Shown here one piece after another: positions 3,500-64,000 of a stretch of DNA of 64,000 nt. The stretch's first letter is position 1; the number at the start of each line of letters is the position of its first letter. The notes below the pieces were generated by a model that did not search any database, was not told where the DNA came from, and was given only the letters and a program-made list of their open reading frames with translations. A program made the translations under genes and the position numbers. This DNA comes from an uncultured Pseudomonadota bacterium (lineage in GTDB: Bacteria > Pseudomonadota > Alphaproteobacteria > JACZXZ01): assembly GCA_963749075.1 (NCBI GenBank), contig CAVVLJ010000021.1:416001-480000 (forward strand), in the 5' to 3' direction.

Positions 3500-4786
3500 G
3501 TGATCATCGCGCTCATCTTCGCGGCCCTCGTGCTTCTCATCGTGCTCGGGCTCCCCATCGCGGTCGCCATGGGGATCACGACGATCGCCGCCATGCTGGC
3601 GCTCGGCGACACGCAGCTCCTCGTCGTCGTGCCGCAGCGCATCTATTCCGCCACCACGGCGTTCCCGCTGCTCGCCATCCCGTTCTTCATCTTCGCCGGC
3701 AACCTGATGAACACCGGCGGCATGACCGACCGCATCTTCCGCCTGGCGCGCGCTTGCGTCGGCCACATCAAGGGCGGGCTCGGCCACGTCAACGTGGTGG
3801 CCTCGATGATCTTCTCCGGCATGTCGGGTGCGGCGCTGGCCAACGCCATGGGGGTCGGCGTCGTCACCATCAACGCGATGGAGAAGGGCGGCTACGACCG
3901 CCGCTTCGCCGCGGCGATCAGCGCTGCGTCCGCCACCATCGGACCGGTGATCCCGCCCTCGATCCCCTTGGTGATCTTCGGCGCCATCACCGGCGTCTCG
4001 GTCGGGCGCCTCTTCCTCGGCGGCGTGGTGCCGGGCCTCATCATGGGCCTCGTGCTGATGGCGGTCGTCTACATCGTGGCCCACCGCCGGGGCTATCCCA
4101 GGGAGCCGCGCGCCACGCTCGCCGAATTCTGGCAGGGCCTGGTCGCGGGCGTCCTGGCGCTCGCCATGCCGGTCATGGTGGTGGGCGGCATCCTCTCCGG
4201 CGCCTTCACGCCGACCGAGGCCTCGGTCGTGGCCTCGCTCTACGCCCTCCTCCTCGGCATCTTCGTCTACCGCGAGATCGGCTGGCGCTCGCTCGGCCGC
4301 GTCATCTGGGAATCGGTCGATCAGACCATCCGCGTCATGTTCATCATCGCGACCGCGGGCGTCTTCGGCTGGTACCTCGTCTATCTCGGCGCCCCCGACA
4401 AGATCATCCACGGGCTCCTCGCCTTTTCCCAGGACCCCTGGATGGTGCTGACCATCATCAACCTGGTGCTGCTCGTGCTGGGCTGTTTCATGGAGGGCAC
4501 GGCGATCATGCTGCTCACCGTCCCGGTGCTCATGCCGGTGATCGCCAAGGTCGGCATCGACCCGGTGCATTTCGGCGTCATGATGACGCTCAACCTCATG
4601 ATCGGCATGCTCACCCCGCCCGTCGGCATGGTGCTCTATGCCATCTCGAGCGTCGGCAAGGTGCCGGTCTGGCGCCTCGCGCACGAGCTCATCCCCTATA
4701 TCGCGGCGCTCATGGTGGCGCTCGCCATCGTCAGCTACGTGCCGGAGGTCGTGGTGTGGCTGCCCAACCTGCTGATGGGCCGCTGA
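3500..4786 (+). CDS. dctM: TRAP transporter large permease (DctM)
   Basis: LLAIPFFIFAGNLM, FSGMSG, IPPSIP, FTPTEA, GIDPVHFG, TPPVG. Confidence 0.95.
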   Translation: MIIALIFAALVLLIVLGLPIAVAMGITTIAAMLALGDTQLLVVVPQRIYSATTAFPLLAIPFFIFAGNLMNTGGMTDRIFRLARACVGHIKGGLGHVNVVASMIFSGMSGAALANAMGVGVVTINAMEKGGYDRRFAAAISAASATIGPVIPPSIPLVIFGAITGVSVGRLFLGGVVPGLIMGLVLMAVVYIVAHRRGYPREPRATLAEFWQGLVAGVLALAMPVMVVGGILSGAFTPTEASVVASLYALLLGIFVYREIGWRSLGRVIWESVDQTIRVMFIIATAGVFGWYLVYLGAPDKIIHGLLAFSQDPWMVLTIINLVLLVLGCFMEGTAIMLLTVPVLMPVIAKVGIDPVHFGVMMTLNLMIGMLTPPVGMVLYAISSVGKVPVWRLAHELIPYIAALMVALAIVSYVPEVVVWLPNLLMGR

Positions 4787-54439: not shown

Positions 54440-54478
54440 GTCCCCGTAGCTCAGCAGGATAGAGCGACAAATTCCTAA
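54440..54478 (+). tRNA. 5' half only of tRNA-Arg(CCT), broken in the anticodon loop; probable att junction
   Basis: GTCCCCG-TA-GCTC-AGCAGGATA-GAGC-G-ACAAA-TT-CCT-AA; the expected TTTGT, T-arm and acceptor 3' strand are absent; integrase gene begins about 145 bp downstream. Confidence 0.85.
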
Positions 54479-54599: not shown

Positions 54600-54632
54600 G
54601 AGAGCCTATAGAGAGCCTAAAGAGTGCCTCAG
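54600..54632 (+). repeat. Three 11-bp-period direct repeats, candidate integrase arm sites
   Basis: GAGAGCCTATA / GAGAGCCTAAA / GAGTGCCTCAG overlapping the integrase start. Confidence 0.55.
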
Positions 54633-55742
54633 ACGCATCTCACCGACCTGACGCTCAAGACACTCGGAGCGCCGGAGCACGGCCAAATTACCTATTGGGA
54701 TGATACGCTCTCCGGCTTCGGATTGCGGGTGTCGCAGGGAGGAGCAAGAACCTTCGTCCTGATCCACGGGAGACGCCGCCAACGGACAACGATCGGCCGC
54801 TATCCGATCATCACCCTTTCCCAAGCGCGCACGAAGGCCAAGGAGCTCTTGGCCGAGCGGACCCTCCGCAAGCACACGCTCCCCGCTATCACCTTTGGAG
54901 AAGCGATCGACTTGTTCCTGTCCACCCATTGCGAGCAAAAGAACAAGGCATCGACGGCTCGGGAAACGAAGAGGCTCTTGCAGAAGCACTTTTCCAGCCT
55001 CCGGCCTGAGAAGCTCGAGGACCTCGCCCCGGACGTGGTTTCGCGGATCATCGACCGGATGCTTCCTACACCCTCGGAGGCCAACCACGCCTTCACGGCT
55101 GTTCGCACCTTCTTCCGTTGGACCGTTCGTCGCCGCTACCTTCTCCATTCCCCCCTTGAAGGGATGAGCCTTCCCACACGTCCGAAATCCAAAGACAGGG
55201 TGCTTACGGACAAGGAGCTGGGCCAGCTGTGGCGGGCCTGCGAGGGACAGTTTGGGACACTCGTTAAGCTCCTCATGCTTACCGGCCAACGAGTCGGAGA
55301 AATTTCCGCACTCCGCTCCGAGTACCTCAATCAGAATACCAAGACGATTACCCTCCCGGCAGGACTTACGAAGAACGGCCGTGAGCACGCCTTCCCTTAC
55401 GGTCCCGCGGCCTCACGTCTCCTGCCGAAGGACAGGCACGGGTACCTCTTCCCGGCCCGCGGGAAGGACAAGCCGATGAATGGCTTCTCGAAGTGCCGGC
55501 TGGCCCTGGACGCGAGGGCCAAGATTGCTCACTGGACGCTTCATGACCTCCGCCGGACGTTCGCGACGAACCTCGCCGCCCTCGGCGTTCCCGTGCACGT
55601 TACCGAAAAACTCCTCAACCATGTCTCCGGTACCATCTCCGGCGTGGCCGCGATCTACAACCGGCACACCTACATGGACGAGATGCGCGCGGCGATGAAG
55701 GCCTGGGAAAAGCATTTGCAATCTCTGGTGGAGCAGGCATAG
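54624..55742 (+). CDS. Tyrosine recombinase/integrase with N-terminal arm-binding domain
   Basis: WDDTLSGFGLRVS..TIGRYP..LSQAR; catalytic TGQRVGE, TKNG, HDLRRT, LNH, IYNR. Confidence 0.95.
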   Translation: MPQTHLTDLTLKTLGAPEHGQITYWDDTLSGFGLRVSQGGARTFVLIHGRRRQRTTIGRYPIITLSQARTKAKELLAERTLRKHTLPAITFGEAIDLFLSTHCEQKNKASTARETKRLLQKHFSSLRPEKLEDLAPDVVSRIIDRMLPTPSEANHAFTAVRTFFRWTVRRRYLLHSPLEGMSLPTRPKSKDRVLTDKELGQLWRACEGQFGTLVKLLMLTGQRVGEISALRSEYLNQNTKTITLPAGLTKNGREHAFPYGPAASRLLPKDRHGYLFPARGKDKPMNGFSKCRLALDARAKIAHWTLHDLRRTFATNLAALGVPVHVTEKLLNHVSGTISGVAAIYNRHTYMDEMRAAMKAWEKHLQSLVEQA

Positions 55743-55806: not shown

Positions 55807-56013
55807 ATGACACAGAAACTGGTCAGCAAGAAAGAGCTGAAATCGCTCTATGGAGTTCCGTATAGCTTCGCGCACATCGCGCGCCTTGAAGCGGCAGGCC
55901 AATTCCCGAAACGGATAAAGCTTGGTGCTTGCAGGGTGGCGTGGTTGGCCGAGGAAGTGCAGAGCTGGATAGACGAGCGCGTTGCTAACCGCGACACGAC
56001 ATCTCCTTCTTGA
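55807..56013 (+). CDS. AlpA-family excisionase/regulator
   Basis: SFAHIARLEAAGQFPKRIKLGACRVAWLAEEVQSWI. Confidence 0.9.
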   Translation: MTQKLVSKKELKSLYGVPYSFAHIARLEAAGQFPKRIKLGACRVAWLAEEVQSWIDERVANRDTTSPS

Positions 56014-56094: not shown

Positions 56095-57744
56095 CTAACG
56101 GACCCTTGTCAACTTGATAAAATTTACCTGGACGTTGAAATCCATCGCCTCAATCTTCCGAGCCTCGTCACGAAGCGTTAGCTTGCTAAAGAAGGGTATA
56201 TTATGTGTCCCGTCGCGTCTCGGAAAATCTGCGATCTGGAAATCGACAGTCCAGCGGTCCTTCAGCGCCGATTTGAATTCTTGCGCTTTTTTCGTCCCAT
56301 AATGCTCCCTCACCTTTTCAATCATTCCAACCTTGAACGGATCATATTGCCGTATCAGCTGCGCAGAGTGCCCTCCTTGCTTAAAAAAGTGGCTGAGCAG
56401 GCTCGATTGACGGGAGCTCTTCTTAATATGGATAAAGCGACGCCTCTCGACATCGAGTAAGTCGCACACTTCCATACCTTGGCCTGGTACTTCGTCGATT
56501 TTAACCAACCTCCTATCCATTAGCAGGTAGCCAGCCTCCGTTTCCATTTCCTTATTGTAGGACTCCTCCGATTGGTAGGTAACTCTCGCCCTTTTTGCCT
56601 TTGGACCGGATCGATCAATTTTCCTCAGCGGTCGCAATTTTTTATCCGGCTTACCACGCAGCTTCACGAACTTTTCGTCTGCCGCATCCTTGAATAACTG
56701 ATCTATGCGATACCAATTTCCCTCGTTTAGCGCGTATCGAGCACCATTCAAAATCAACGAGCCGACAAGCGAATCATGCACTGACCAATGGTCACACGGT
56801 CGCTTATCATCCTCGATATAGGCTGCCACGCTATGCTTGTTCAAATCCTCCAAGCTCAATTTTGCTAGATTGCTTCCCAGTGCCTCCCGATACAGGTCGA
56901 GCGACAGATCAGGATAAAACTTCCCAATTCGTGCGTGCTCAAATCGAAAAGACCCGACGCTCTCCGATACAATTTTTGGAATTGCAATTTCAAACTCGTC
57001 ACTCCCTCCGCGAATGGCCGCAACGAGGGCCTCGTCAAGAAGCGATTGAACAGTGTTGTCTAAGACGGGCGAAAGAAAGTCGATGATTTGAAAACTAGTA
57101 TTCTTATATGCCTCAGATTTAAAGAAATTAACAGCTTCTACGGCAGCATCCGGTACATCGGCTATCTCGATCCTCTTCGAGAACCTCAGCGCACGAGAGC
57201 CCGTCACTAAATCTGCAAACTCGTGATCCGCCGTGTAACCGCTTACCTTTCGAATCAGGTCCAACGCGTCATCAAAACCAAATGATCGGAGATCGCGCTG
57301 TCCGGCGGCCTGTGCAAAATCTCGAATCGCTGCGCCAATATTAGAGCGCTCTACACTTCGCAGCTTATCGTCGCTAACGGCGTTGATTGCTACCTTCAGA
57401 CCGAAATCAGCCTCCGTTTTTGAGTGATCCAAATAGACGTGCCCATATGAAAACGTCAGGGCGAAAATAGATTTCTCCTTTTTGAACACCAGAACGGCGC
57501 ACGGTGACTTCGAAAAGAGGTTCTCGGGAAGCGAAAATGAAGCCTTCAGCAATTCGACCCAATTTGGAATACCTTCATGACCAGGAAAAGTGTATAGGCC
57601 GCTACCGTCGCCAAATTCGGCGGAGGGGGTCTTCGTCGCCAGTTTCCGCTTTACCAAATCTCGAGCATTTTCAGTCAACAGGTCGTCAAAGCCGGTTACT
57701 TCAGCCTTTGCAAGATACAGCGAGAACGTGTTCAGTCTTGGCAC
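56095..57744 (-). CDS. TIGR04141/DUF6119-like protein with C-terminal PD-(D/E)xK-like nuclease motif
   Basis: SLYLAK..FSYGH..DFGLKVAIN; LNEGNWY; ESYN; EVCDLL..FIHIKK....LSHFFKQG; IPFFSKLTL; GTG start inferred. Confidence 0.78.
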   Translation of the reverse strand: MPRLNTFSLYLAKAEVTGFDDLLTENARDLVKRKLATKTPSAEFGDGSGLYTFPGHEGIPNWVELLKASFSLPENLFSKSPCAVLVFKKEKSIFALTFSYGHVYLDHSKTEADFGLKVAINAVSDDKLRSVERSNIGAAIRDFAQAAGQRDLRSFGFDDALDLIRKVSGYTADHEFADLVTGSRALRFSKRIEIADVPDAAVEAVNFFKSEAYKNTSFQIIDFLSPVLDNTVQSLLDEALVAAIRGGSDEFEIAIPKIVSESVGSFRFEHARIGKFYPDLSLDLYREALGSNLAKLSLEDLNKHSVAAYIEDDKRPCDHWSVHDSLVGSLILNGARYALNEGNWYRIDQLFKDAADEKFVKLRGKPDKKLRPLRKIDRSGPKAKRARVTYQSEESYNKEMETEAGYLLMDRRLVKIDEVPGQGMEVCDLLDVERRRFIHIKKSSRQSSLLSHFFKQGGHSAQLIRQYDPFKVGMIEKVREHYGTKKAQEFKSALKDRWTVDFQIADFPRRDGTHNIPFFSKLTLRDEARKIEAMDFNVQVNFIKLTRVR

Positions 57745-57776
57745 GCCTGCACCGACCGTTAAGCCATCGACCGTAA

Positions 57777-58385
<609 letters not shown>

Positions 58386-59120: not shown

Positions 59121-61080
59121 GGCCGAGCTTTTCATTGTCCGAAGCGATAAGGCGTTGAGATAGAATCGGAATTCGCCGTTTCGGGCGCTCGAATGTAGCC
59201 ATGCAGTCGTGCCATTTATAGCTTGACGGCGCGAGGTGGGGCTGATTCGATGTGTCATGCACATCGAGTCCGTGCCCAACCGCAAATCGCACCCGACCAT
59301 CCTGCTGCGCGAGAGCTACCGCGCGGAGGGCAAGGTGCGCAAGCGCACCATCGCCAATCTGACGCATTGGCCGGAGCAGCTGGTGGAGGGCTTGCGTACG
59401 CTGCTGCGTGGCGGCGTGGCGGTGGGCGGGGCGGAGGAGGCGCTGAGCATCAGCCGCTCGTTGCCCCATGGGCATGTCGCGGCGGTGCTGGGCACGGCGG
59501 AGCGGCTCGGCTTGGCGAAGCTCTTGAACGAGCGCCGCGGCGGGCCTGACGGGCGGCGCTATCGCGACTTGGTGCTGGCCCTCATCGTCAACCGCGTGAT
59601 CGCGCCGTCGTCCAAGCTGGCGGCGGTGCGGGCGCTGAATGCGGAGACGGCGGCGTCGAGCCTGGGCGAGCGGCTGGGTTTGGGCGCGGTGGGGGAACGC
59701 GAGATATACGCGGCCCTGGACTGGCTCCTCGCGCAGCAGGAGCGGATCGAGAAGGGGCTGGCCAGGCGCCATCTGGCCGGCGGCACGCTCGTCCTCTACG
59801 ACGTGAGCTCCTCGTATCTCGAGGGCCGCTGCTGCGAACTGGCGCAGCACGGCTATAGCCGCGATCATCGTCCCGACCGGCCGCAGCTCGTCTATGGCCT
59901 GCTGTGCAACCGGGAGGGCTGTCCGGTGGCGATCGAGGTGTTCGCAGGCAACACTGCCGATCCAATGACGCTCGCAGCCCAGCTGAGCAAGCTCAAGGGA
60001 CGCTTCGGCCTGGAGCGGGTGGTTCTGGTCGGCGACCGCGGCATGATCACCAGCGCCCGCATCCGCGAGGCGCTCGAGCCGGCGGGGCTGGATTGGATCA
60101 CCGCCTTGCGCGCGCCGAAGATCCAGGAGCTCGCCCAGGGCGGCCCGCTGCAACTGTCGCTGTTCGACGAGCGCGACCTGGCCGAGATCAGCGCCCCGGA
60201 TTATCCGGGCGAGCGCCTGATCGTCTGTCGCAATCCGCTGCTGGCGGCCGAGCGCCGACGCAAGCGCGAAGCCTTGTTGGCCGCGACCGAGCGGGACTTG
60301 AGCCGCGTCAAGCTGGCGGTAGAGCGCAAGCGCGTCCCCCTGCGCGGCAAGGCCGAGATCGGCCTGGACGTCGGCGCCGTGCTCGACAAGCACAAGATGG
60401 GCAAGCACTATGAGCTCTCGATCGGCGATGCCAGCTTCACGTACCGCCGCAAGGAAAGCGCCATCGCCGACGAAGCCCGCCTCGACGGCATCTATGTGAT
60501 CCGCACCAGCGTCCCGGCCGCCGCCCTCACGGCGGAGCAGGCTGTCGGCGCCTATAAATCCCTCGCCCAGGTCGAGCGCGCCTTCCGCTGCCTCAAGACC
60601 GCCGATCTCGAAATCCGCCCGGTCTTCCATTGGACCGCGCCGCGGGTGCGCGCCCATGTGCTGTTGTGCATGCTGGCCTACTACGTCGAATTCCACATGC
60701 GAGGCCATCTGGCGCCGCTGCTCTTCCACGACCACGATCGCGCCGCTGCCGCCGCCGAGCGCAAATCCATCGTCGCCCCGGCACAACGCTCCCCCGCGGC
60801 CAAGCGCAAGGCCACCGCGCGCCGCACCGATGACGGCTTGCCCGTCCATAGCTTCCGCAGCCTCCTCGATGACCTCGCCACCCTCTGCCTCAACAAGGTC
60901 AGCCTGCCCAGCAATCAGACGTACCGCTTCGATCTGCCGACCAAGCCGACGCCCCTCCAAGCCCGCGCCCTCGAACTGCTCGGCGTCGGCCTCGGGCTGT
61001 AGTCAGTACGCGACCATCACAAGCCCGATTTATCGAGTCGGCTCAGTGACTTGCTCATGTTCAAAGTAAAAAGTTCAGGC
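59121..61080 (+). mobile_element. IS1634-family insertion sequence
   Basis: Imperfect terminal inverted repeats GGCCGAGCTTTT and AAAAGTTCAGGC, each flanked by TA; GC-rich relative to the island; exact ends approximate. Confidence 0.8.
59257..61002 (+). CDS. IS1634-family DDE transposase
   Basis: LLRESYR..KVRKRTIANL, LYDVSSSYLEG, GYSRD, VGDRGM, YKSL..VERAFR..K, RPVFHW..RVRAH. Confidence 0.93.
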   Translation: MHIESVPNRKSHPTILLRESYRAEGKVRKRTIANLTHWPEQLVEGLRTLLRGGVAVGGAEEALSISRSLPHGHVAAVLGTAERLGLAKLLNERRGGPDGRRYRDLVLALIVNRVIAPSSKLAAVRALNAETAASSLGERLGLGAVGEREIYAALDWLLAQQERIEKGLARRHLAGGTLVLYDVSSSYLEGRCCELAQHGYSRDHRPDRPQLVYGLLCNREGCPVAIEVFAGNTADPMTLAAQLSKLKGRFGLERVVLVGDRGMITSARIREALEPAGLDWITALRAPKIQELAQGGPLQLSLFDERDLAEISAPDYPGERLIVCRNPLLAAERRRKREALLAATERDLSRVKLAVERKRVPLRGKAEIGLDVGAVLDKHKMGKHYELSIGDASFTYRRKESAIADEARLDGIYVIRTSVPAAALTAEQAVGAYKSLAQVERAFRCLKTADLEIRPVFHWTAPRVRAHVLLCMLAYYVEFHMRGHLAPLLFHDHDRAAAAAERKSIVAPAQRSPAAKRKATARRTDDGLPVHSFRSLLDDLATLCLNKVSLPSNQTYRFDLPTKPTPLQARALELLGVGLGL

Positions 61081-61198
61081 TAGAATAACGGTGGTACCGA
61101 ACGGACCGCAAAGACCCGACTAGGCCGGGCGAGCGAACTACGCAGAGTGATCAGGATTGCTCTTTTAAAACAGCGCCGAGACATAATTGGGGGACGAG

Positions 61199-62179
61199 AT
61201 GAACTCATCGCAGCAGATGGGAGTATCCGGATGCCGGTTGAGTGACGGGAGATTGCACTTAGGCCATTATCTTGGTTGTCTCCATCCGGAGAAGACCAAA
61301 CAAATCGGGGAGCTCTTCTTTGTCATTCAAGACGGTAAAACCAACTACTTAGCAGGTAAACCGCCGTCCGTGGAGCCGTTAGCCCTACTTCTCGCGCAAC
61401 TATACGCCTTTTGCACTGAAGATTGCACTATTGTTCCGTGCCTCCAAAGCAAAATCTTTCCTGCCTATGCGCCACTTTTTGATTTTGCCAGAGCCGTGAT
61501 TACGTTACGGGGCCTGGAGAGGGTCCATCCGAAGAAGGATGACTTGAAGGCTGCATTCGGTATTCCTCTTAGGGATTATCTTTTTCCAGTCGATCAAGCC
61601 GTTCAGTTCCTAGCGTTCGGGGCTGATTTTATTCTCATGAATGACGACAACATTCGCTTTGCGAGATTGGCAAATAACCTTCACAAGAAGCTTACCACAG
61701 CGGAGCACCGATCTATGCCGGCACCACGAATGGCACTTGATCCGGTCCCGAGATTGCTTGGAAGCAATGGGCAAAAAATGTCGAAGGCCAACGGCAACTG
61801 CATATTCCTTACGGACGACGACCGGACTGTAACCGAGCAGATTAGGAATTACGCTCGACGAATAGGCTGGAGGTGGACAAGAGATTGCCGATGGGAGTAC
61901 GAAGGAGAAGTCGCCCTGTCAGAAGAAATAGGCTCTGGCTCTGCCCTAGCTTCGATCTGTTTTACCTTTCAACTCGATTTTCCAGATTTGCGTTTGGCCG
62001 TCGAGTCAGTGCCCGACCTTATTGAACATCTTATAAAGCGTATCGTTCCATTAATTTCTGACGTTAGAGCGCGTACGCATGAAGCCATGAAATCAAAAGG
62101 GCTATTGTTTGACCGCTTAGCGGCTGACTCCACGCGTGCAACTCACCGAATTGCGAATACGATCGGGGCACTGATATGA
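61199..62179 (+). CDS. Divergent tryptophanyl-tRNA-synthetase-like class I nucleotidyltransferase
   Basis: HIGH-like HLGH (SGCRLSDGRLHLGHYLGCL), QS, YLFPVDQA, KMSKS-like KMSKANGNCIFL; amino-acid pocket motifs altered. Confidence 0.75.
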   Translation: MNSSQQMGVSGCRLSDGRLHLGHYLGCLHPEKTKQIGELFFVIQDGKTNYLAGKPPSVEPLALLLAQLYAFCTEDCTIVPCLQSKIFPAYAPLFDFARAVITLRGLERVHPKKDDLKAAFGIPLRDYLFPVDQAVQFLAFGADFILMNDDNIRFARLANNLHKKLTTAEHRSMPAPRMALDPVPRLLGSNGQKMSKANGNCIFLTDDDRTVTEQIRNYARRIGWRWTRDCRWEYEGEVALSEEIGSGSALASICFTFQLDFPDLRLAVESVPDLIEHLIKRIVPLISDVRARTHEAMKSKGLLFDRLAADSTRATHRIANTIGALI

Positions 62180-62895
62180 CGGATCGTCGATTCGTGTTAC
62201 TCATCCGGCACGCGGACTCAGAAAAAAATGCACTCGGTCAGTTTGCTGGCGATGCGTCTTCCGACCGACTTACTATGGCTGGGAAGCTTCAGCTAGAGCG
62301 CGTAAGGAGTGAAATTAACTCAATCATTAGCGCACTTGGGATCAAGTCGATCAGAATTGCACATGCTGATTCAGAACGCGCTAAGACGACCGCAGTCGCT
62401 CTTGCGGGTCCACTCGGCGCCGCGCTAAAGGCAGTTCCAGAATTTCGCTCAATTCGGTCTGGCATTGCAGCTGGCATGACAGAAAGTGAGATCGCAATTC
62501 AGTATCCCGAGTTCTACAATTCATTGACATTATATCGTGCGGGCGTTCTGTCCTCTTACGATATACCGTATCCGCTCGGCGCCGAGCGCGTTCAGGACTT
62601 TGAACGCATAGTCGAGGGCGCGCTGAGGAATCTGCTCTCCGATGCAGTCAACCAGTTCTTCATCGTTATTGGACATAGATCATCAATCACTGCAATTCTA
62701 CTGTATTACGCACGCCTCGTTCACGAATATCCATCAAATTTCTTCGGATATATACCGTTGGACCCGTGCGTCACGTCCTGTATTGACATACGGCTAGGCG
62801 CCGAGCAGATACTTTGGGTAAACCGAACGATTGACCGATCGTTTCTCGTTGGGGTCGTTAATAGGGTCGGGAGCACAGCGTCACGAAATGGCTAA
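62176..62895 (+). CDS. Histidine phosphatase (PGM/CobC-like)
   Basis: LIRHADS..N, LT..G..Q, RA..TA, GAE, IGHRSSI; ATGA overlap with the upstream gene. Confidence 0.8.
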   Translation: MTDRRFVLLIRHADSEKNALGQFAGDASSDRLTMAGKLQLERVRSEINSIISALGIKSIRIAHADSERAKTTAVALAGPLGAALKAVPEFRSIRSGIAAGMTESEIAIQYPEFYNSLTLYRAGVLSSYDIPYPLGAERVQDFERIVEGALRNLLSDAVNQFFIVIGHRSSITAILLYYARLVHEYPSNFFGYIPLDPCVTSCIDIRLGAEQILWVNRTIDRSFLVGVVNRVGSTASRNG

Positions 62896-63528
62896 GGGTC
62901 GCCTACCTTCCAGCACCCTCTCGGCCATTATCAAAGCCGTTAGGTAATAATTTTGAATCCGCGGTAGAAACCGGTTCTTCGTAATTTCTTCTACGCAAGA
63001 AATCCAAACGTGAGCTTTCGCATCATATCGGATTCCATTCACACGTATGATCTCTAACTTTTCTTCAAACAGCTTCATGCCTGCGCTGACTGGAAGCGCC
63101 AAGAGGCCGTGCACCTCGTTTGGATCGGGGCGGTAGCTCTCAAGTGGTCTGTCATCTCTGAGCATAAAGACTCCCTGATATTCTCTATTTAGCTGACCGT
63201 TCTCCTGATCTGCCACTTCCACACGGTACCCGAGCCATTTTAAATCGCTCGAGCGCACGGTAATACCAAGCTCCTCTGATACTTCACGGATACCATCACT
63301 AAGTTCCTCACCTGTACGGAGATGCCCGGCTGCGGTTATATCCAGAAGATTCGGGTAATTCTTTGCCACAGGCGAGCGAAGCTGAAAAAGCAGGCTTCCT
63401 TTGTACTCTCCAGTTACTACCCAAAGATGAAAAGTCCGGTGCCATGCTCCCTGCATGTGTGCCGACAGTCGATCAGCAACACCGGTCTTTTTGAGATTCG
63501 CGTCGAATATGTCGATCTGTTCGGACAT
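62881..63528 (-). CDS. Nudix hydrolase (IDI-like subfamily)
   Basis: AH..G.WHRTFHLW, LFQLRS..K.YP..LD.TAAGH..GE....IREVSEELG. Confidence 0.88.
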   Translation of the reverse strand: MSEQIDIFDANLKKTGVADRLSAHMQGAWHRTFHLWVVTGEYKGSLLFQLRSPVAKNYPNLLDITAAGHLRTGEELSDGIREVSEELGITVRSSDLKWLGYRVEVADQENGQLNREYQGVFMLRDDRPLESYRPDPNEVHGLLALPVSAGMKLFEEKLEIIRVNGIRYDAKAHVWISCVEEITKNRFLPRIQNYYLTALIMAERVLEGRRPLAIS

Positions 63529-63538
63529 GGAGAGACTT

Positions 63539-64000
63539 CTACTGGTTGCGAACTGATAGGGTTCTGGCCACCTTCTGCCTCTTGGCATGAATCTCGAGTG
63601 CGGCGGTTCGACGTCCTAGAGCCGTTAGGAGGCGCTCTTCGAGAACAAGGCCTTTGTTTAATCGCTCGTAGTCGGCGATTGATTCAAACGAAGTGGTAGC
63701 AGCGCTAACGAGCGCTAGGGCGTCCATCGCCTTTTTTGTCGATTCCCTATCTTTCGGTAAGTCGCTCCCGTGGTTGAGAACACCTAAGCTCCGGGCGAGA
63801 ATCGTTGCTCGGGCGTGGTCGATCTGCGCCTTGTCGCGAACCAAGGCATCTTTAAAGTGTTCGACATTCTCGTTAAGGCCTCTCAGGGACGTAATCACCT
63901 CCTCCGCTCGGTCCAAGAACCTATGGCCATCCTCCTCCCGCTGAGTCATCATTGCCATATGCCTATAACCCTTGGCTGCTGTGAGTCGCATTTCAACTAT
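63539..64000 (-). CDS. Hypothetical helical protein upstream of the Nudix gene, probably the C-terminal part of a gene starting beyond the window
   Basis: Frame of ORF 63539..63991 stays open to the window edge; stop lies 10 bp before the Nudix start. Confidence 0.5.
   Translation of the reverse strand: MVEMRLTAAKGYRHMAMMTQREEDGHRFLDRAEEVITSLRGLNENVEHFKDALVRDKAQIDHARATILARSLGVLNHGSDLPKDRESTKKAMDALALVSAATTSFESIADYERLNKGLVLEERLLTALGRRTAALEIHAKRQKVARTLSVRNQ

Follow-up and report, generated by a model that had tools for sequence, protein, structure and literature searches.

A TrpRS-derived ligase paralog conserved with histidine phosphatase, Nudix and TPR-like genes on mobile or variable DNA

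Several class I aminoacyl-tRNA synthetase paralogs are known that use adenylate or aminoacyl-transfer chemistry on targets other than the 3' end of a tRNA. According to the account given in a 2022 review, the CysRS-like MshC couples Cys with a small molecule, Ile is transferred to altemicidin in the case of the IleRS-like SbzA, and Glu-Q-RS (YadB) modifies tRNA-Asp (PMC9437257). The same source describes the cyclodipeptide synthases (CDPSs) as relatives of the class Ic (TyrRS/TrpRS-like) catalytic domain in natural-product synthesis, with AlbC having no tRNA-binding domain at its C-terminus, and its Table 1 gives no paralog function for TrpRS (PMC9437257). Each of these repurposed paralogs, MshC, Glu-Q-RS, SbzA, and the CDPSs, opened new biochemistry. 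A route is outlined for the puromycin-type clusters, in which the Nudix hydrolase Pur7 (NTP to NMP), the monophosphatase Pur3, the amino-acid-attaching Pur6, and methyltransferases lead to an aminoacyl-nucleoside (PMC11641026). ADG is described as the product of a small low-GC island-like operon (PMC9239236).

The window analyzed here is a whole stretch of 64,000 nt from an uncultured Pseudomonadota bacterium (Alphaproteobacteria; JACZXZ01; assembly GCA_963749075.1, contig CAVVLJ010000021.1, positions 416,001-480,000). It encodes a TrpRS-derived class I ligase paralog of 326 aa (61199..62179, + strand, from the ATG at 61199), which would have 330 aa if an in-frame TTG at 61187 were used. The initial annotation had described an ORF of about 326 aa with HLGH and KMSKA motifs and a TrpRS-like layout, and translation, AlphaFold2 (AF2) modeling, and Foldseek all agree with this. 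The translation contains the motifs RLHLGHYLGC, FPVDQAVQFL, ILMNDDN, and QKMSKAN, so that the HIGH-type and KMSKS-type ATP motifs of trpS are present as HLGH and KMSKA. The AF2 model (pLDDT 88.3, full length) comprises both the Rossmann domain and the C-terminal helical domain of the full-length TrpRS fold, and the best Foldseek matches are bacterial TrpRS with TM scores of 0.73-0.76 over about 340 columns. The best profile matches (1e-31 to 7.5e-34) are TrpRS II, an auxiliary enzyme of the HLGH type from Deinococcus radiodurans (2a4m, 1yi8), and the TrpRS of Chlamydia (6ncr). With these the ligase shares the full-length fold and the G-x-R...HLGHY, D-x, P, D-N/Q, and K-M-S-K-x...N motifs. However, it matches Pfam tRNA-synt_1b at 1e-8 and scores 52.2 bits against TIGR00233 (trpS), far below the cut-off of 176.75, while a canonical trpS elsewhere in the same genome reaches 306.4 bits. 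Because this canonical gene is present, the ligase is an extra TrpRS-fold paralog distinct from the housekeeping TrpRS, as the initial annotation had held. A second, weaker TrpRS-level match was also found in three other host genomes. The ligase was also considered as a cyclodipeptide synthase (a domain of about 230 aa), and this was ruled out by its 326 aa, its HxGH and K-M-S-K-like motifs, and its C-terminal helical domain. CDPSs are not known to have ATP-binding motifs.

The ligase differs from TrpRS in its pocket and in its gene context, since it is always an extra copy and always part of a cassette. It has Phe for the Tyr of the YP motif, Gln136 aligns with the Asp that canonical TrpRS have in the AADI(L) helix and that we take to be the residue binding the indole of Trp, and Asn148 aligns with the Gly of GxDQ (profile alignment to solved TrpRS and 126-row alignment). 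The 126 rows, from which the tree was also built, include 35 canonical rows used for comparison and 78 of a non-canonical clade, a family of roughly 78 clusters (50% identity) as far as rows could be placed. The Trp-Asp column has D in 34 of the 35 canonical rows and in none of the 78 non-canonical rows, where it varies between T (19), Y (17), Q (9), F (7), S (5), and others. The earlier proposal that FPVDQAVQFL replaces the TrpRS motif with loss of the indole-binding Asp is thus supported across the clade. The Gly of GxDQ is invariant in the canonical rows (35/35) and replaced by Asn in 73 of the 78 others. The companion proposal, that ILMNDDN stands in for VPVGxDQ, therefore holds for the Gly and has to be narrowed for the rest, because the Asp of the motif is retained (D150, 73/78) and part of the motif is kept. 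The family thus has neither the Trp-recognizing Asp nor the intact GxDQ of trpS, nor does it conserve the His found in the canonical D-x-H motif. The residues of the ATP site are retained (H20, H23, and N200 in 78/78, K or R at 193 in 78/78, K196 in 57/78). Judged by the alignment, this is a family with conserved ATP-binding residues and an amino-acid pocket that is rewritten and varies between its members. Two members do not match any Pfam family.

The ligase gene is coupled by an ATGA stop/start overlap, which can be read directly and had been noted before, to a gene for a branch 1 histidine phosphatase of the PhoE/CobC/phosphoserine-phosphatase-like type (62176..62895, + strand). The protein belongs to the PF00300 superfamily (2.5e-16, 60.4 bits; cut-off 21.7). 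Its catalytic positions R11, H12, R68, and E137 are invariant in eight rows, and the second catalytic His, H167, is found in seven of the eight, with Gln in L010. The best PDB matches of its profile are PhoE, phosphoserine phosphatase, and CobC, so that by its nearest relatives, which are metabolic, it is predicted to be a phosphatase of the small-molecule kind. The 3' end of its gene overlaps by 15 bp with a convergent gene for a Nudix hydrolase of the IPP-isomerase (IDI)/YfcD-like branch (62881..63528, - strand, about 215 aa from Met21), in agreement with the earlier annotation. The frame is open up to 63588 (62881-63588), and the start is probably Met21 at 63528, since homologs begin there, residues 1-20 have a pLDDT below 50, and the base at 63537 is missing from run X1. 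PF00293 scores 22.5 bits (cut-off 21.1), which places the protein in the Nudix superfamily. The Nudix box (REVxEELG; G88, E94, R101, E102, E105, E106, G108) is invariant in seven rows, with a spacing between E94 and R101 that is one residue shorter than in the textbook box. The AF2 model (pLDDT 86.8) confirms the Nudix fold, with YfcD and IDI as best Foldseek matches, and the cassette Nudix proteins have a conserved C-terminal extension. From their residues, all three enzymes retain their catalytic positions and look active.

A TPR-like partner protein is encoded upstream of the Nudix gene (63539..64000, - strand, continuing to window-equivalent position 64830; 3539-4830 of L001) and was recognized by homology across loci. 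In this assembly it is split into a 210-aa and a 217-aa ORF, but the contigs of run X1 lack bases at L001 4187 and 4203, so that the partner reads there as one open frame of 440 codons. Homologs are encoded upstream of the Nudix gene in L004, L008, L011, L013, L016, and G092. The L004 partner has TPR_12 matches, and the nearest Atlas clusters of the partner are TPR families. The initial annotation had listed merely an unknown gene here; the gene is indeed present, but it is a conserved, TPR-like fourth component found in 8 of 14 loci.

The 14 loci compared belong to Chloroflexota, Chlorobi/Bacteroidota, and Alphaproteobacteria. In 13 of them the histidine phosphatase adjoins the ligase, and 12 contain the IDI/YfcD-like Nudix gene; wherever one of these genes or the TPR-like partner is missing, the gap is at a contig end. 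The initial annotation had named two results that would speak against it, a place of the ligase within the canonical TrpRS clades with charging of tRNA-Trp, and homologs without conserved linkage to the phosphatase and Nudix genes. In the tree the ligase falls outside the canonical clade (separating branch support 100), and the linkage is found in the 13 and 12 of 14 loci just given. The recurrence of this gene set in 14 loci of at least three phyla argues for an association beyond chance. A SAM methyltransferase is inserted in two of the 14 loci, and the cassette genes are joined by stop/start overlaps. The convergent arrangement noted earlier is true of the own locus and is shared by L013 only, while L011 inverts the phosphatase gene alone; the more common layout is a same-strand operon in the order Nudix, TrpRS-like, phosphatase. 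The ligase and the partner diverge fast, whereas the Nudix protein is conserved. As the initial annotation had supposed, this is not a recognizable described system, because no system model of PADLOC-DB v2.0.0 matches the ligase, phosphatase, Nudix, or partner, and the literature searched gave no description of the module or the family. The only PADLOC match among the cassette genes is that of the optional L008 methyltransferase to the generic mad2 model. No riboswitch or leader RNA pointing to a metabolite was found, and the gene content of the 14 loci includes neither an exporter nor a resistance gene within the cassette, both points against the pathway proposed below.

At the own locus the cassette rides on an integrative element of 18.1 kb at tRNA-Arg, with a 30-bp direct repeat marking its ends. 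The left copy of the repeat is the 5' part of tRNA-Arg(CCT) (54440..54469, + strand), and the right copy (window-equivalent 72600-72629) lies within the tRNA gene 72600-72676. The left copy is followed by the tyrosine integrase of the island (54624..55742, + strand), which has a P4-like N-terminus by eye and was named by resemblance to the profile-scanned L013 integrase, and by a small AlpA-like ORF (55807-56013). Immediately upstream of the ligase gene, the low-GC island is interrupted by a high-GC IS transposase (DDE_Tnp_1; 59236..61002, + strand). The GC content is 0.50-0.52 in the cassette region versus 0.66-0.73 in the flanks, which together with the repeats and the integrase agrees with the earlier description of AT-richer cargo on an integrative element. 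Transposases are also found in the contexts of L005 and G092, and L016 is a T4SS plasmid. Thus, the cassette is a four-gene set with an optional methyltransferase, conserved across phyla on mobile or variable DNA.

Most likely, the cassette makes or processes a small molecule, and the partner genes constrain its chemistry because two of the three remove phosphates. From the gene contexts, it may plausibly take part in microbial conflict. Taken together, and only as a tentative preference, we would regard it as a mobile, non-translational pathway in which Nudix, phosphatase, and TrpRS-derived ligase together yield a small molecule acting in microbial conflict. In an assumed order of steps, the Nudix hydrolase would take pyrophosphate or phosphate off a nucleotide-like or other diphosphate precursor, and the PhoE/CobC-like phosphatase would remove the remaining phosphate to expose a hydroxyl. 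The ligase would activate a non-tryptophan carboxylate as acyl-adenylate and transfer the acyl group to a small acceptor replacing A76 of the tRNA, giving an ester of the aminoacyl-nucleoside type. The product would be methylated in some cassettes and might be an antibiotic-like or abortive-infection molecule, with the TPR-like protein as regulator or sensor. Because the Nudix protein is nearest to IDI and YfcD and not to nucleotide pyrophosphatases, the precursor may be other than a nucleotide. Given the same-strand operon order, the small-molecule-type phosphatase, and the optional methyltransferase, such a sequential pathway is no worse a fit than a writer/eraser pair. The latter is the module that the initial annotation had suggested, with anti-phage signaling, toxin/immunity, or small-molecule tailoring as possible roles. 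MshC, SbzA, and Glu-Q-RS, which were compared by description beyond the class I core, would be analogs in chemistry, but none of them is TrpRS-derived and their partner genes differ.

An anti-phage system based on nucleotide chemistry is an unlikely alternative. Here, the TPR-like protein would sense infection, the ligase would make an adenylate or dinucleoside-polyphosphate signal or sense tRNA or an amino acid, and Nudix and phosphatase would be erasers or effectors draining a nucleotide/NAD-type pool. Synthetase-derived nucleotides have precedents in LysU, which makes Ap4A, and in a LeuRS copy that makes leucyl-adenylates, as summarized in the review (PMC9437257). The sporadic spread across phyla on islands and plasmids and the fast divergence of ligase and partner relative to the Nudix protein would fit, as would recognized defense genes within a few kb. 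These are restriction-modification-like cargo on the own element (MTase_II and a PbeA-like helicase), AbiEi/AbiEii in L010, a type III REase fragment in L013, which also has an integrase, and, as a weak defense match, DUF3800 in L003. The link to defense rests on neighbor genes at a handful of loci. However, the contexts of L004, L011, and L016 contain no defense genes, none of the four proteins matches a PADLOC model, and no family members were found on the viral contigs searched. In addition, the phosphatase is nearest to metabolic small-molecule phosphatases, and the methyltransferase found in two of the 14 cassettes is better explained by product tailoring.

A more specific conflict module, in which a signal through the TPR-like protein leads Nudix and phosphatase to free a nucleoside that the ligase aminoacylates to a short-lived puromycin-like translation poison (abortive infection or antibiotic), is rather unlikely; the variable pocket would then stand for different amino acids. 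The puromycin, cystocin, A201A, and ADG clusters likewise combine a Nudix hydrolase, a monophosphatase, an amino-acid-attaching enzyme, and one or more methyltransferases, as far as they are outlined in PMC11641026. However, the phosphatase and ligase of the cassette come from other superfamilies; the likeness is one of logic only. By gene content, the cassettes of the 14 loci consist of only the four or five genes described, and with the Pur proteins compared by description, a Pur10 dehydrogenase, a Pur4 aminotransferase, a Pur6-type synthetase, and an acetyltransferase are all absent.

It is quite unlikely that the cassette serves prenyl metabolism, with the Nudix protein acting on an IPP/DMAPP-like diphosphate, the phosphatase giving the alcohol, and the ligase esterifying or otherwise joining it with an activated acid. 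Type 1 IPP isomerases and YfcD are the best sequence and fold matches of the Nudix protein, and the IDI-type metal-ligand positions H44, H50, H89, and E136 are kept, with N134 at the fifth, all invariant in seven rows. Positions presumably matching the diphosphate-binding Arg/Lys of IDI are conserved, too; the roles of the IDI Cys/Glu pair and of the metal ligands are likewise presumed. Yet the position of the catalytic Cys is Ala in all seven rows (alignment to 1ow2, which itself has Ala there, and other IDI chains), the complete REVxEELG box speaks for hydrolysis, and the protein scores below the cut-offs of both the YfcD and IDI families (IDI, NF002995/TIGR02150: 57.2 bits, cut-off 127). 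In G488, the neighbors of a stand-alone relative are RpiA and a fusion of guanylate kinase and Nudix, a nucleotide/ribose context, and we know of no precedent for prenyl esters of amino acids.

Similarly improbable is a paralog still acting on tRNA, which would charge it with a non-standard amino acid prepared by the neighboring enzymes or modify or repair it. The ligase retains the full C-terminal helical domain of the TrpRS fold and thus may bind tRNA, its catalytic domain is more basic than the canonical one (mean net charge +5.6 versus -0.9), and Glu-Q-RS is described as a precedent (PMC9437257). However, conservation is lowest in the C-terminal domain (column entropy 3.14; canonical rows, 2.35), whose terminal helices have lost the positive charge of canonical TrpRS (-0.3 versus +2.4), the profile match of many relatives is limited to positions 4-220, and the pocket differs between members. 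The scan of 13 loci revealed neither tRNA genes nor RNA elements within or next to the cassette, the only tRNA found being the distant att-site tRNA-Arg of L001. Resistant spare TrpRS copies of the indolmycin/chuangxinmycin type are known from the accounts in PMC9437257 and PMC5388404, and auxiliary TrpRS II is among the closest solved relatives, but a copy of this kind with helper hydrolases destroying an aminoacyl-adenylate mimic is very improbable given the Trp-binding Asp missing in every family row, the unconserved D-x-H His, the low trpS score, and the two members without Pfam match.

The ligases form a coherent family that combines an intact ATP site and a diversified pocket with three constant partner genes, which makes the small-molecule pathway favored here open to a direct test with four small proteins, soluble or membrane-anchored. 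If the aminoacylated-nucleoside reading were true, the ligase would be the first repurposed TrpRS paralog and would define a new aminoacyl-nucleoside route. A product of this type, or another translation-directed molecule, would be relevant to antibiotic discovery, phage defense, and tools for genetic-code engineering. Even a plain salvage or detoxification operon would provide a function for the IDI-like Nudix family, which is widespread and unannotated, and for proteins labeled "hypothetical" in RefSeq. Against the small-molecule pathway, the Nudix family is much larger than the ligase family and can occur without the cassette. In favor of it, the pairing of phosphatase and Nudix genes is found again, with distant Nudix relatives, in two of four annotated Bacillales contexts.

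The TrpRS-derived class I paralogue encoded at 61199-62179 (+ strand, 326 aa; motifs RLHLGHYLGC, FPVDQAVQFL, ILMNDDN, and QKMSKAN), here called the ligase, is not the housekeeping TrpRS of its genome, as the initial annotation had already claimed. It reaches 52.2 bits against the trpS equivalog (cut-off 176.75) compared to 306 bits for the normal trpS of the same genome (C21:67482-68465), matches the Pfam model tRNA-synt_1b weakly (1e-8), and falls into a separate clade. The profile of its family covers solved bacterial TrpRS over their full length, with Chlamydia TrpRS (6ncr, 7.5e-34) and Deinococcus TrpRS II (1.7e-31) at the top, and the Foldseek neighbours of the AlphaFold model (pLDDT 88.3, pTM 0.88) are bacterial TrpRS as well (TM 0.73-0.76). 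In a FastTree phylogeny of 126 of the 161 proteins, limited to those of 300-380 aa, the ligase is one of 78 non-canonical rows set apart by a branch with a support of 100 and a length of 0.79 from a group of 48 rows, which contains all 35 rows with the GxDQ motif. Residues and C-terminal domains were compared between the 78 non-canonical and these 35 canonical rows, omitting the 13 rows that group with the canonical ones in the tree but do not have the GxDQ pattern. Both His of HxGH, Asn200, and the first Lys/Arg of the KMSKS-like loop are present in all 78 non-canonical rows; 73 of these keep the Asp of GxDQ and 57 the second Lys of the loop. At the Asp column of the AADI(L) helix, which we take to bind the indole of Trp, 34 of the 35 canonical rows but none of the 78 family rows have Asp. 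There, the family has T (19), Y (17), Q (9), F (7), S (5), and others. The Tyr of the YP motif is replaced by Phe in 73/78 rows and the Gly of GxDQ by Asn, also in 73/78; because motif pattern and tree were used to define the groups, there is some circularity in the Gly/Asn count for position 148 but none in the Asp136 count. Judged from these alignments, we read the ligase as a putative adenylate-forming enzyme, whose ATP site would be under constraint and whose acid-binding pocket would have been rebuilt and diversified.

A word-based search of 5.8 billion clusters (range searched 179-571 aa) retrieved 18 relatives, the longest of at most 346 aa, and searching 1.84 billion representatives exhaustively with the family profile yielded 2448 proteins at E <= 0.001, of which 88 were found at E <= 1e-30. 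Profile scores fall from 420 bits to about 125 bits, where the canonical TrpRS (PVGEDQ, KMSKS) start. Three further host genomes encode a family member (355-421 bits) plus a separate match of 109-118 bits. The latter is the score of solved TrpRS against the family profile and, thus, the ligase is an extra copy in those hosts, too. The Thalassospira marina ligase is named "hypothetical protein" in RefSeq, and neither it nor the ligase of G092, a genome of the window's own class, has a Pfam match. Fused forms were not found among the longer proteins, although this is weak evidence; the longer TrpRS relatives (fusions with GNAT, chorismate mutase, editing, and tRNA_bind domains) belong to other families. 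Independently of the ligase family, the representative library contains unusual TrpRS architectures (P0122, P0124, P0137, P0109, P0105, and P0112), among them a GNAT acetyltransferase joined to a TrpRS without the GxDQ pattern, a chorismate mutase-TrpRS, a TrpRS with a tRNA_edit editing domain, and a TrpRS-tRNA_bind protein. A phage origin of the ligase was considered and dropped, because the family was not found in the viral contigs collection and matches in the phages collection reach only 22-28% identity, the annotated ones being trpS. The ESM Atlas clusters nearest to the ligase by language-model features are tRNA-synt_1b proteins of 233-251 aa that are 92-95% viral, and phrog_37857 (function not assigned) is a weak match (1.7e-5). 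Such short phage-borne W/Y-synthetase-like proteins may merit separate attention.

The genomic neighbourhood was compared at 14 loci encoding a family member, comprising this genome, three species genomes (an Anaerolineaceae, a Chlorobiaceae, and a Bacteroidetes MAG), eight metagenome contigs, the annotated megaplasmid of T. marina, and G092. A histidine phosphatase adjoins the ligase gene at 13 of the 14 loci (10/11 in the tblastn subset), and the only miss in either count is contig L007, whose sequence stops within the ligase gene. A Nudix homologue is found at 12/14 loci, the two misses, L006 (1.8 kb) and L007 (1.2 kb), ending too early, and a TPR-like partner protein at 8/14, the six other contigs being too short or reaching no further than the Nudix gene. 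The linkage of the ligase to phosphatase and Nudix, on which the earlier interpretation depended, is therefore conserved. A class I SAM methyltransferase is placed between Nudix and ligase at two of the 14 loci (contig L008 and T. marina). The usual order on one strand is partner, Nudix, (methyltransferase), ligase, and phosphatase, with frequent overlaps of 4-8 bp; in this genome and in L013 Nudix and partner are convergent to ligase and phosphatase, and in L011 the phosphatase alone is inverted. Within the ligase tree, these loci represent four or more sub-clades. No riboswitch or leader RNA was detected in the 13 loci scanned, and the clade-b plasmid contexts gave no match. The genes are tightly coupled, the repeat-protein partner belongs to the cassette, and the cassette resides on mobile or variable DNA. 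We are confident that it is a conserved cassette serving a non-translational role.

At the locus in this genome, the phosphatase gene (62176-62895, +, 239 aa) starts within the ligase stop in ATGA, and its 3' end overlaps the convergent Nudix ORF (62881-63588, -) by 15 bp. The partner, the "unknown gene" of the initial annotation, follows behind the Nudix gene on the same strand and extends past the window end. Translation from an in-frame TTG at 61187 would make the ligase four residues longer. The cassette region has a GC content of 0.50-0.52 compared to 0.66-0.73 in the surroundings, and this low-GC stretch is an 18.1-kb integrative element between two copies of a 30-bp direct repeat. One copy is at 54440-54469 and the other at 72600 in numbering continued past 64000, where it forms the first 30 bases of a tRNA-Arg(CCT) gene (72600-72676; 12600-12676 of L001, this genome's own locus). 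On re-reading, the motifs, the ATGA coupling, the 15-bp overlap, and the AT-richer element described before were all correct. The tyrosine integrase (54624-55742) is located at the element end distant from the intact tRNA gene, and the cargo includes an HTH_36 gene and a 574-aa DUF6119/TIGR04141 "sporadically distributed" protein (56095-57819, -, 5.5e-129), for which there is no PADLOC model. An IS of high GC content (0.66-0.69) with a DDE_Tnp_1 transposase (59236-61002, +) has inserted into the low-GC island. From its end to the start codon of the ligase gene downstream are about 130-200 bp, and the insertion may have separated this gene from its native promoter. A 621-aa antisense ORF within the IS region was rejected as a high-GC artefact. 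Past the cassette, the island encodes a bPH_2 protein, a small tyrosine recombinase, IS3, and an RM-like trio (67001-70771 in continued numbering, L001 7001-10771) of a type II N6/N4 DNA methyltransferase, a 529-aa GHKL (HATPase_c_3) ATPase, and a PbeA-like ResIII helicase, the genes of the latter two overlapping each other.

The ligase is probably an active, extra, non-canonical class I enzyme, and the two accompanying phosphate-removing enzymes are of the small-molecule kind and probably active as well, as judged from their conserved residues. In the phosphatase R11, H12, R68, and E137 are kept, the second His in 7/8 rows, and in profile comparison PhoE, phosphoserine phosphatase, and CobC come closest to it, all of them small-phosphomonoester enzymes. 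The Nudix box (G88, E94, R101, E102, E105, E106, and G108) is kept in 7/7 aligned rows. A prediction of a ligase-phosphatase complex gave a score of 0.08 (mark 0.32), which counts neither for nor against such a complex. A Nudix enzyme followed by a monophosphatase is the standard route from a nucleoside polyphosphate or another diphosphate to the free alcohol. In puromycin-type clusters, this is the pair (Pur7, Pur3) by which the nucleoside is prepared, before Pur6 attaches the amino acid and methyltransferases modify the product further (PMC11641026, PMC9239236), and MshC and SbzA are described as class I synthetase paralogues that hand an amino acid to a small molecule (PMC9437257). Given this logic and these precedents, we propose small-molecule transfer by the ligase. 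The Nudix enzyme would first act on a nucleoside polyphosphate or another diphosphate, the monophosphatase would then leave the free alcohol, and the TrpRS-derived ligase would adenylate a non-Trp acid and move it onto the dephosphorylated product in place of A76 of a tRNA. By analogy, such a short pathway of dephosphorylation and subsequent non-Trp acyl transfer is possible, and we put it forward tentatively, as something short of probable. In its proposed working the cassette is most like the repurposed synthetase paralogues, and we rate it as an aaRS-derived ligase within a small pathway. In membership tests the cassette and its proteins fall outside trpS, IDI, CDPS, every PADLOC system, and the pur-type clusters. 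Family and cassette are undescribed in the literature searched, which excluded supplements and most subscription journals (paralogues of this type may appear in the supplementary tables of PMC5388404), and Table 1 of a 2022 review of aaRS duplicates gives TrpRS without any paralogue function (PMC9437257). Thus, the interpretation in the initial annotation is partly supported: the non-housekeeping enzyme, the conserved linkage, and the undescribed system stand, and its write/erase mechanism is a candidate.

The cassette could also be a defence system with the hydrolases as effectors or erasers, which we consider somewhat unlikely. Its context leans to conflict: RM-like genes are present on the island of this genome and AbiEi/AbiEii in L010, L013 has an integrase, DUF6998, and a type III REase fragment as neighbours, IS110 is found in L005, transposases and a recombinase in G092, and the T. 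marina cassette sits on a T4SS plasmid. No conflict or mobility genes of these kinds were seen around L004 and L011, and no PADLOC model is matched by any cassette protein. The boldest reading, a conflict module of a new type with a puromycin-like aminoacyl-nucleoside as its product, is improbable in our judgement.

Concerning the Nudix substrate in the proposed dephosphorylation and acyl-transfer pathway, an isoprenoid diphosphate would be the alternative to a nucleotide. Both its sequence and its fold place the enzyme closest to E. coli YfcD and the type-1 IPP isomerases, and the positions aligned with the IDI metal ligands are invariant (H44, H50, H89, N134, and E136). The position of the catalytic Cys of IDI is Ala in the cassette Nudix, and we regard an isoprenoid substrate as quite improbable. 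The Nudix gene is the most conserved of the cassette (mean column identity 57%) and its family is much larger, with 2396 matches, the best 120 of which all have E <= 1.1e-79; named carriers among the matches are Streptomyces, Micromonospora, Nonomuraea, and a Ruminococcaceae MAG. It occurs in 2 of 401 sampled genomes of the window's phylum, both times inside the cassette, and in 5 of 401 sampled genomes around the genome G403. One of these five, G488, has a full-length relative without the cassette (L036, G488:C8 2500-5580, -), with the genes of RpiA, a membrane protein, and a guanylate-kinase-Nudix fusion upstream of it. Distant relatives are encoded on four Bacillales plasmids next to a histidine phosphatase, a HAD hydrolase, or transporters. 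In Radiobacillus kanasensis (NZ_CP088021.1, L022 5410-6612) the Nudix gene is directly behind the phosphatase gene, and in Cytobacillus spongiae (NZ_CP089998.1, L020 5325-8713) a HAD hydrolase, the Nudix, a metal-dependent hydrolase, and a canonical trpS follow each other. The Cytobacillus proximity is possibly a coincidence, as the trpS is canonical and set apart by one gene and 369 bp. The pair of phosphatase and Nudix may predate the cassette.

A role of the ligase directed at tRNA is very doubtful to us. The C-terminal domain is the least conserved part of the family (mean column entropy 3.14 vs 2.35 in canonical TrpRS), and the net charge of the last C-terminal helices is -0.3 compared to +2.4, whereas the catalytic domain is more basic in the family (+5.6 vs -0.9). 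That the ligase is an antibiotic-resistant TrpRS is extremely unlikely.

The N-terminal part of the TPR-like partner differs between loci: L004, L008, L011, and L013 show one or two hydrophobic segments there, and this genome, T. marina, and G092 a soluble region of about 170-190 aa. The remainder is a conserved helical-repeat body with weak TPR_12 matches. In the Atlas it neighbours TPR sensor modules, and the cluster closest to it (score 0.95) has 112 members, mostly of Actinomycetota, a phylum in which the Nudix, too, seems to be common. An HTH seen by eye in the N-terminus was rejected, since Pfam finds nothing there even at E 10. In this assembly the partner is split into two ORFs of 217 and 210 aa. 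Contigs of the soil-metagenome run X1, which are at least 99% alike, do not have single bases at L001 3537, 4187, and 4203 (63537, 64187, and 64203 in continued numbering); the comparison was used for these three differences only, uncovered parts being uninformative, and the omission at 4203 was read from the clipped end of one contig, which fits from 4204 on. With the bases at 4187 and 4203 out, the partner forms one open frame of 440 codons that can be aligned unbroken with the L013 partner (46%, 4e-70). Hence, the split results either from an error in the assembly or from a difference between strains. As X1 could be the sample from which the assembly comes, its agreement is not independent proof. 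The omission at 3537 falls within the first 20 codons of the Nudix ORF, an N-terminal extension that is doubtful. On the T. marina plasmid (L016 4345-5069, -), Rfam finds a 5S rRNA and a 3' fragment of an LSU rRNA about 1.1-1.8 kb upstream of the partner gene.
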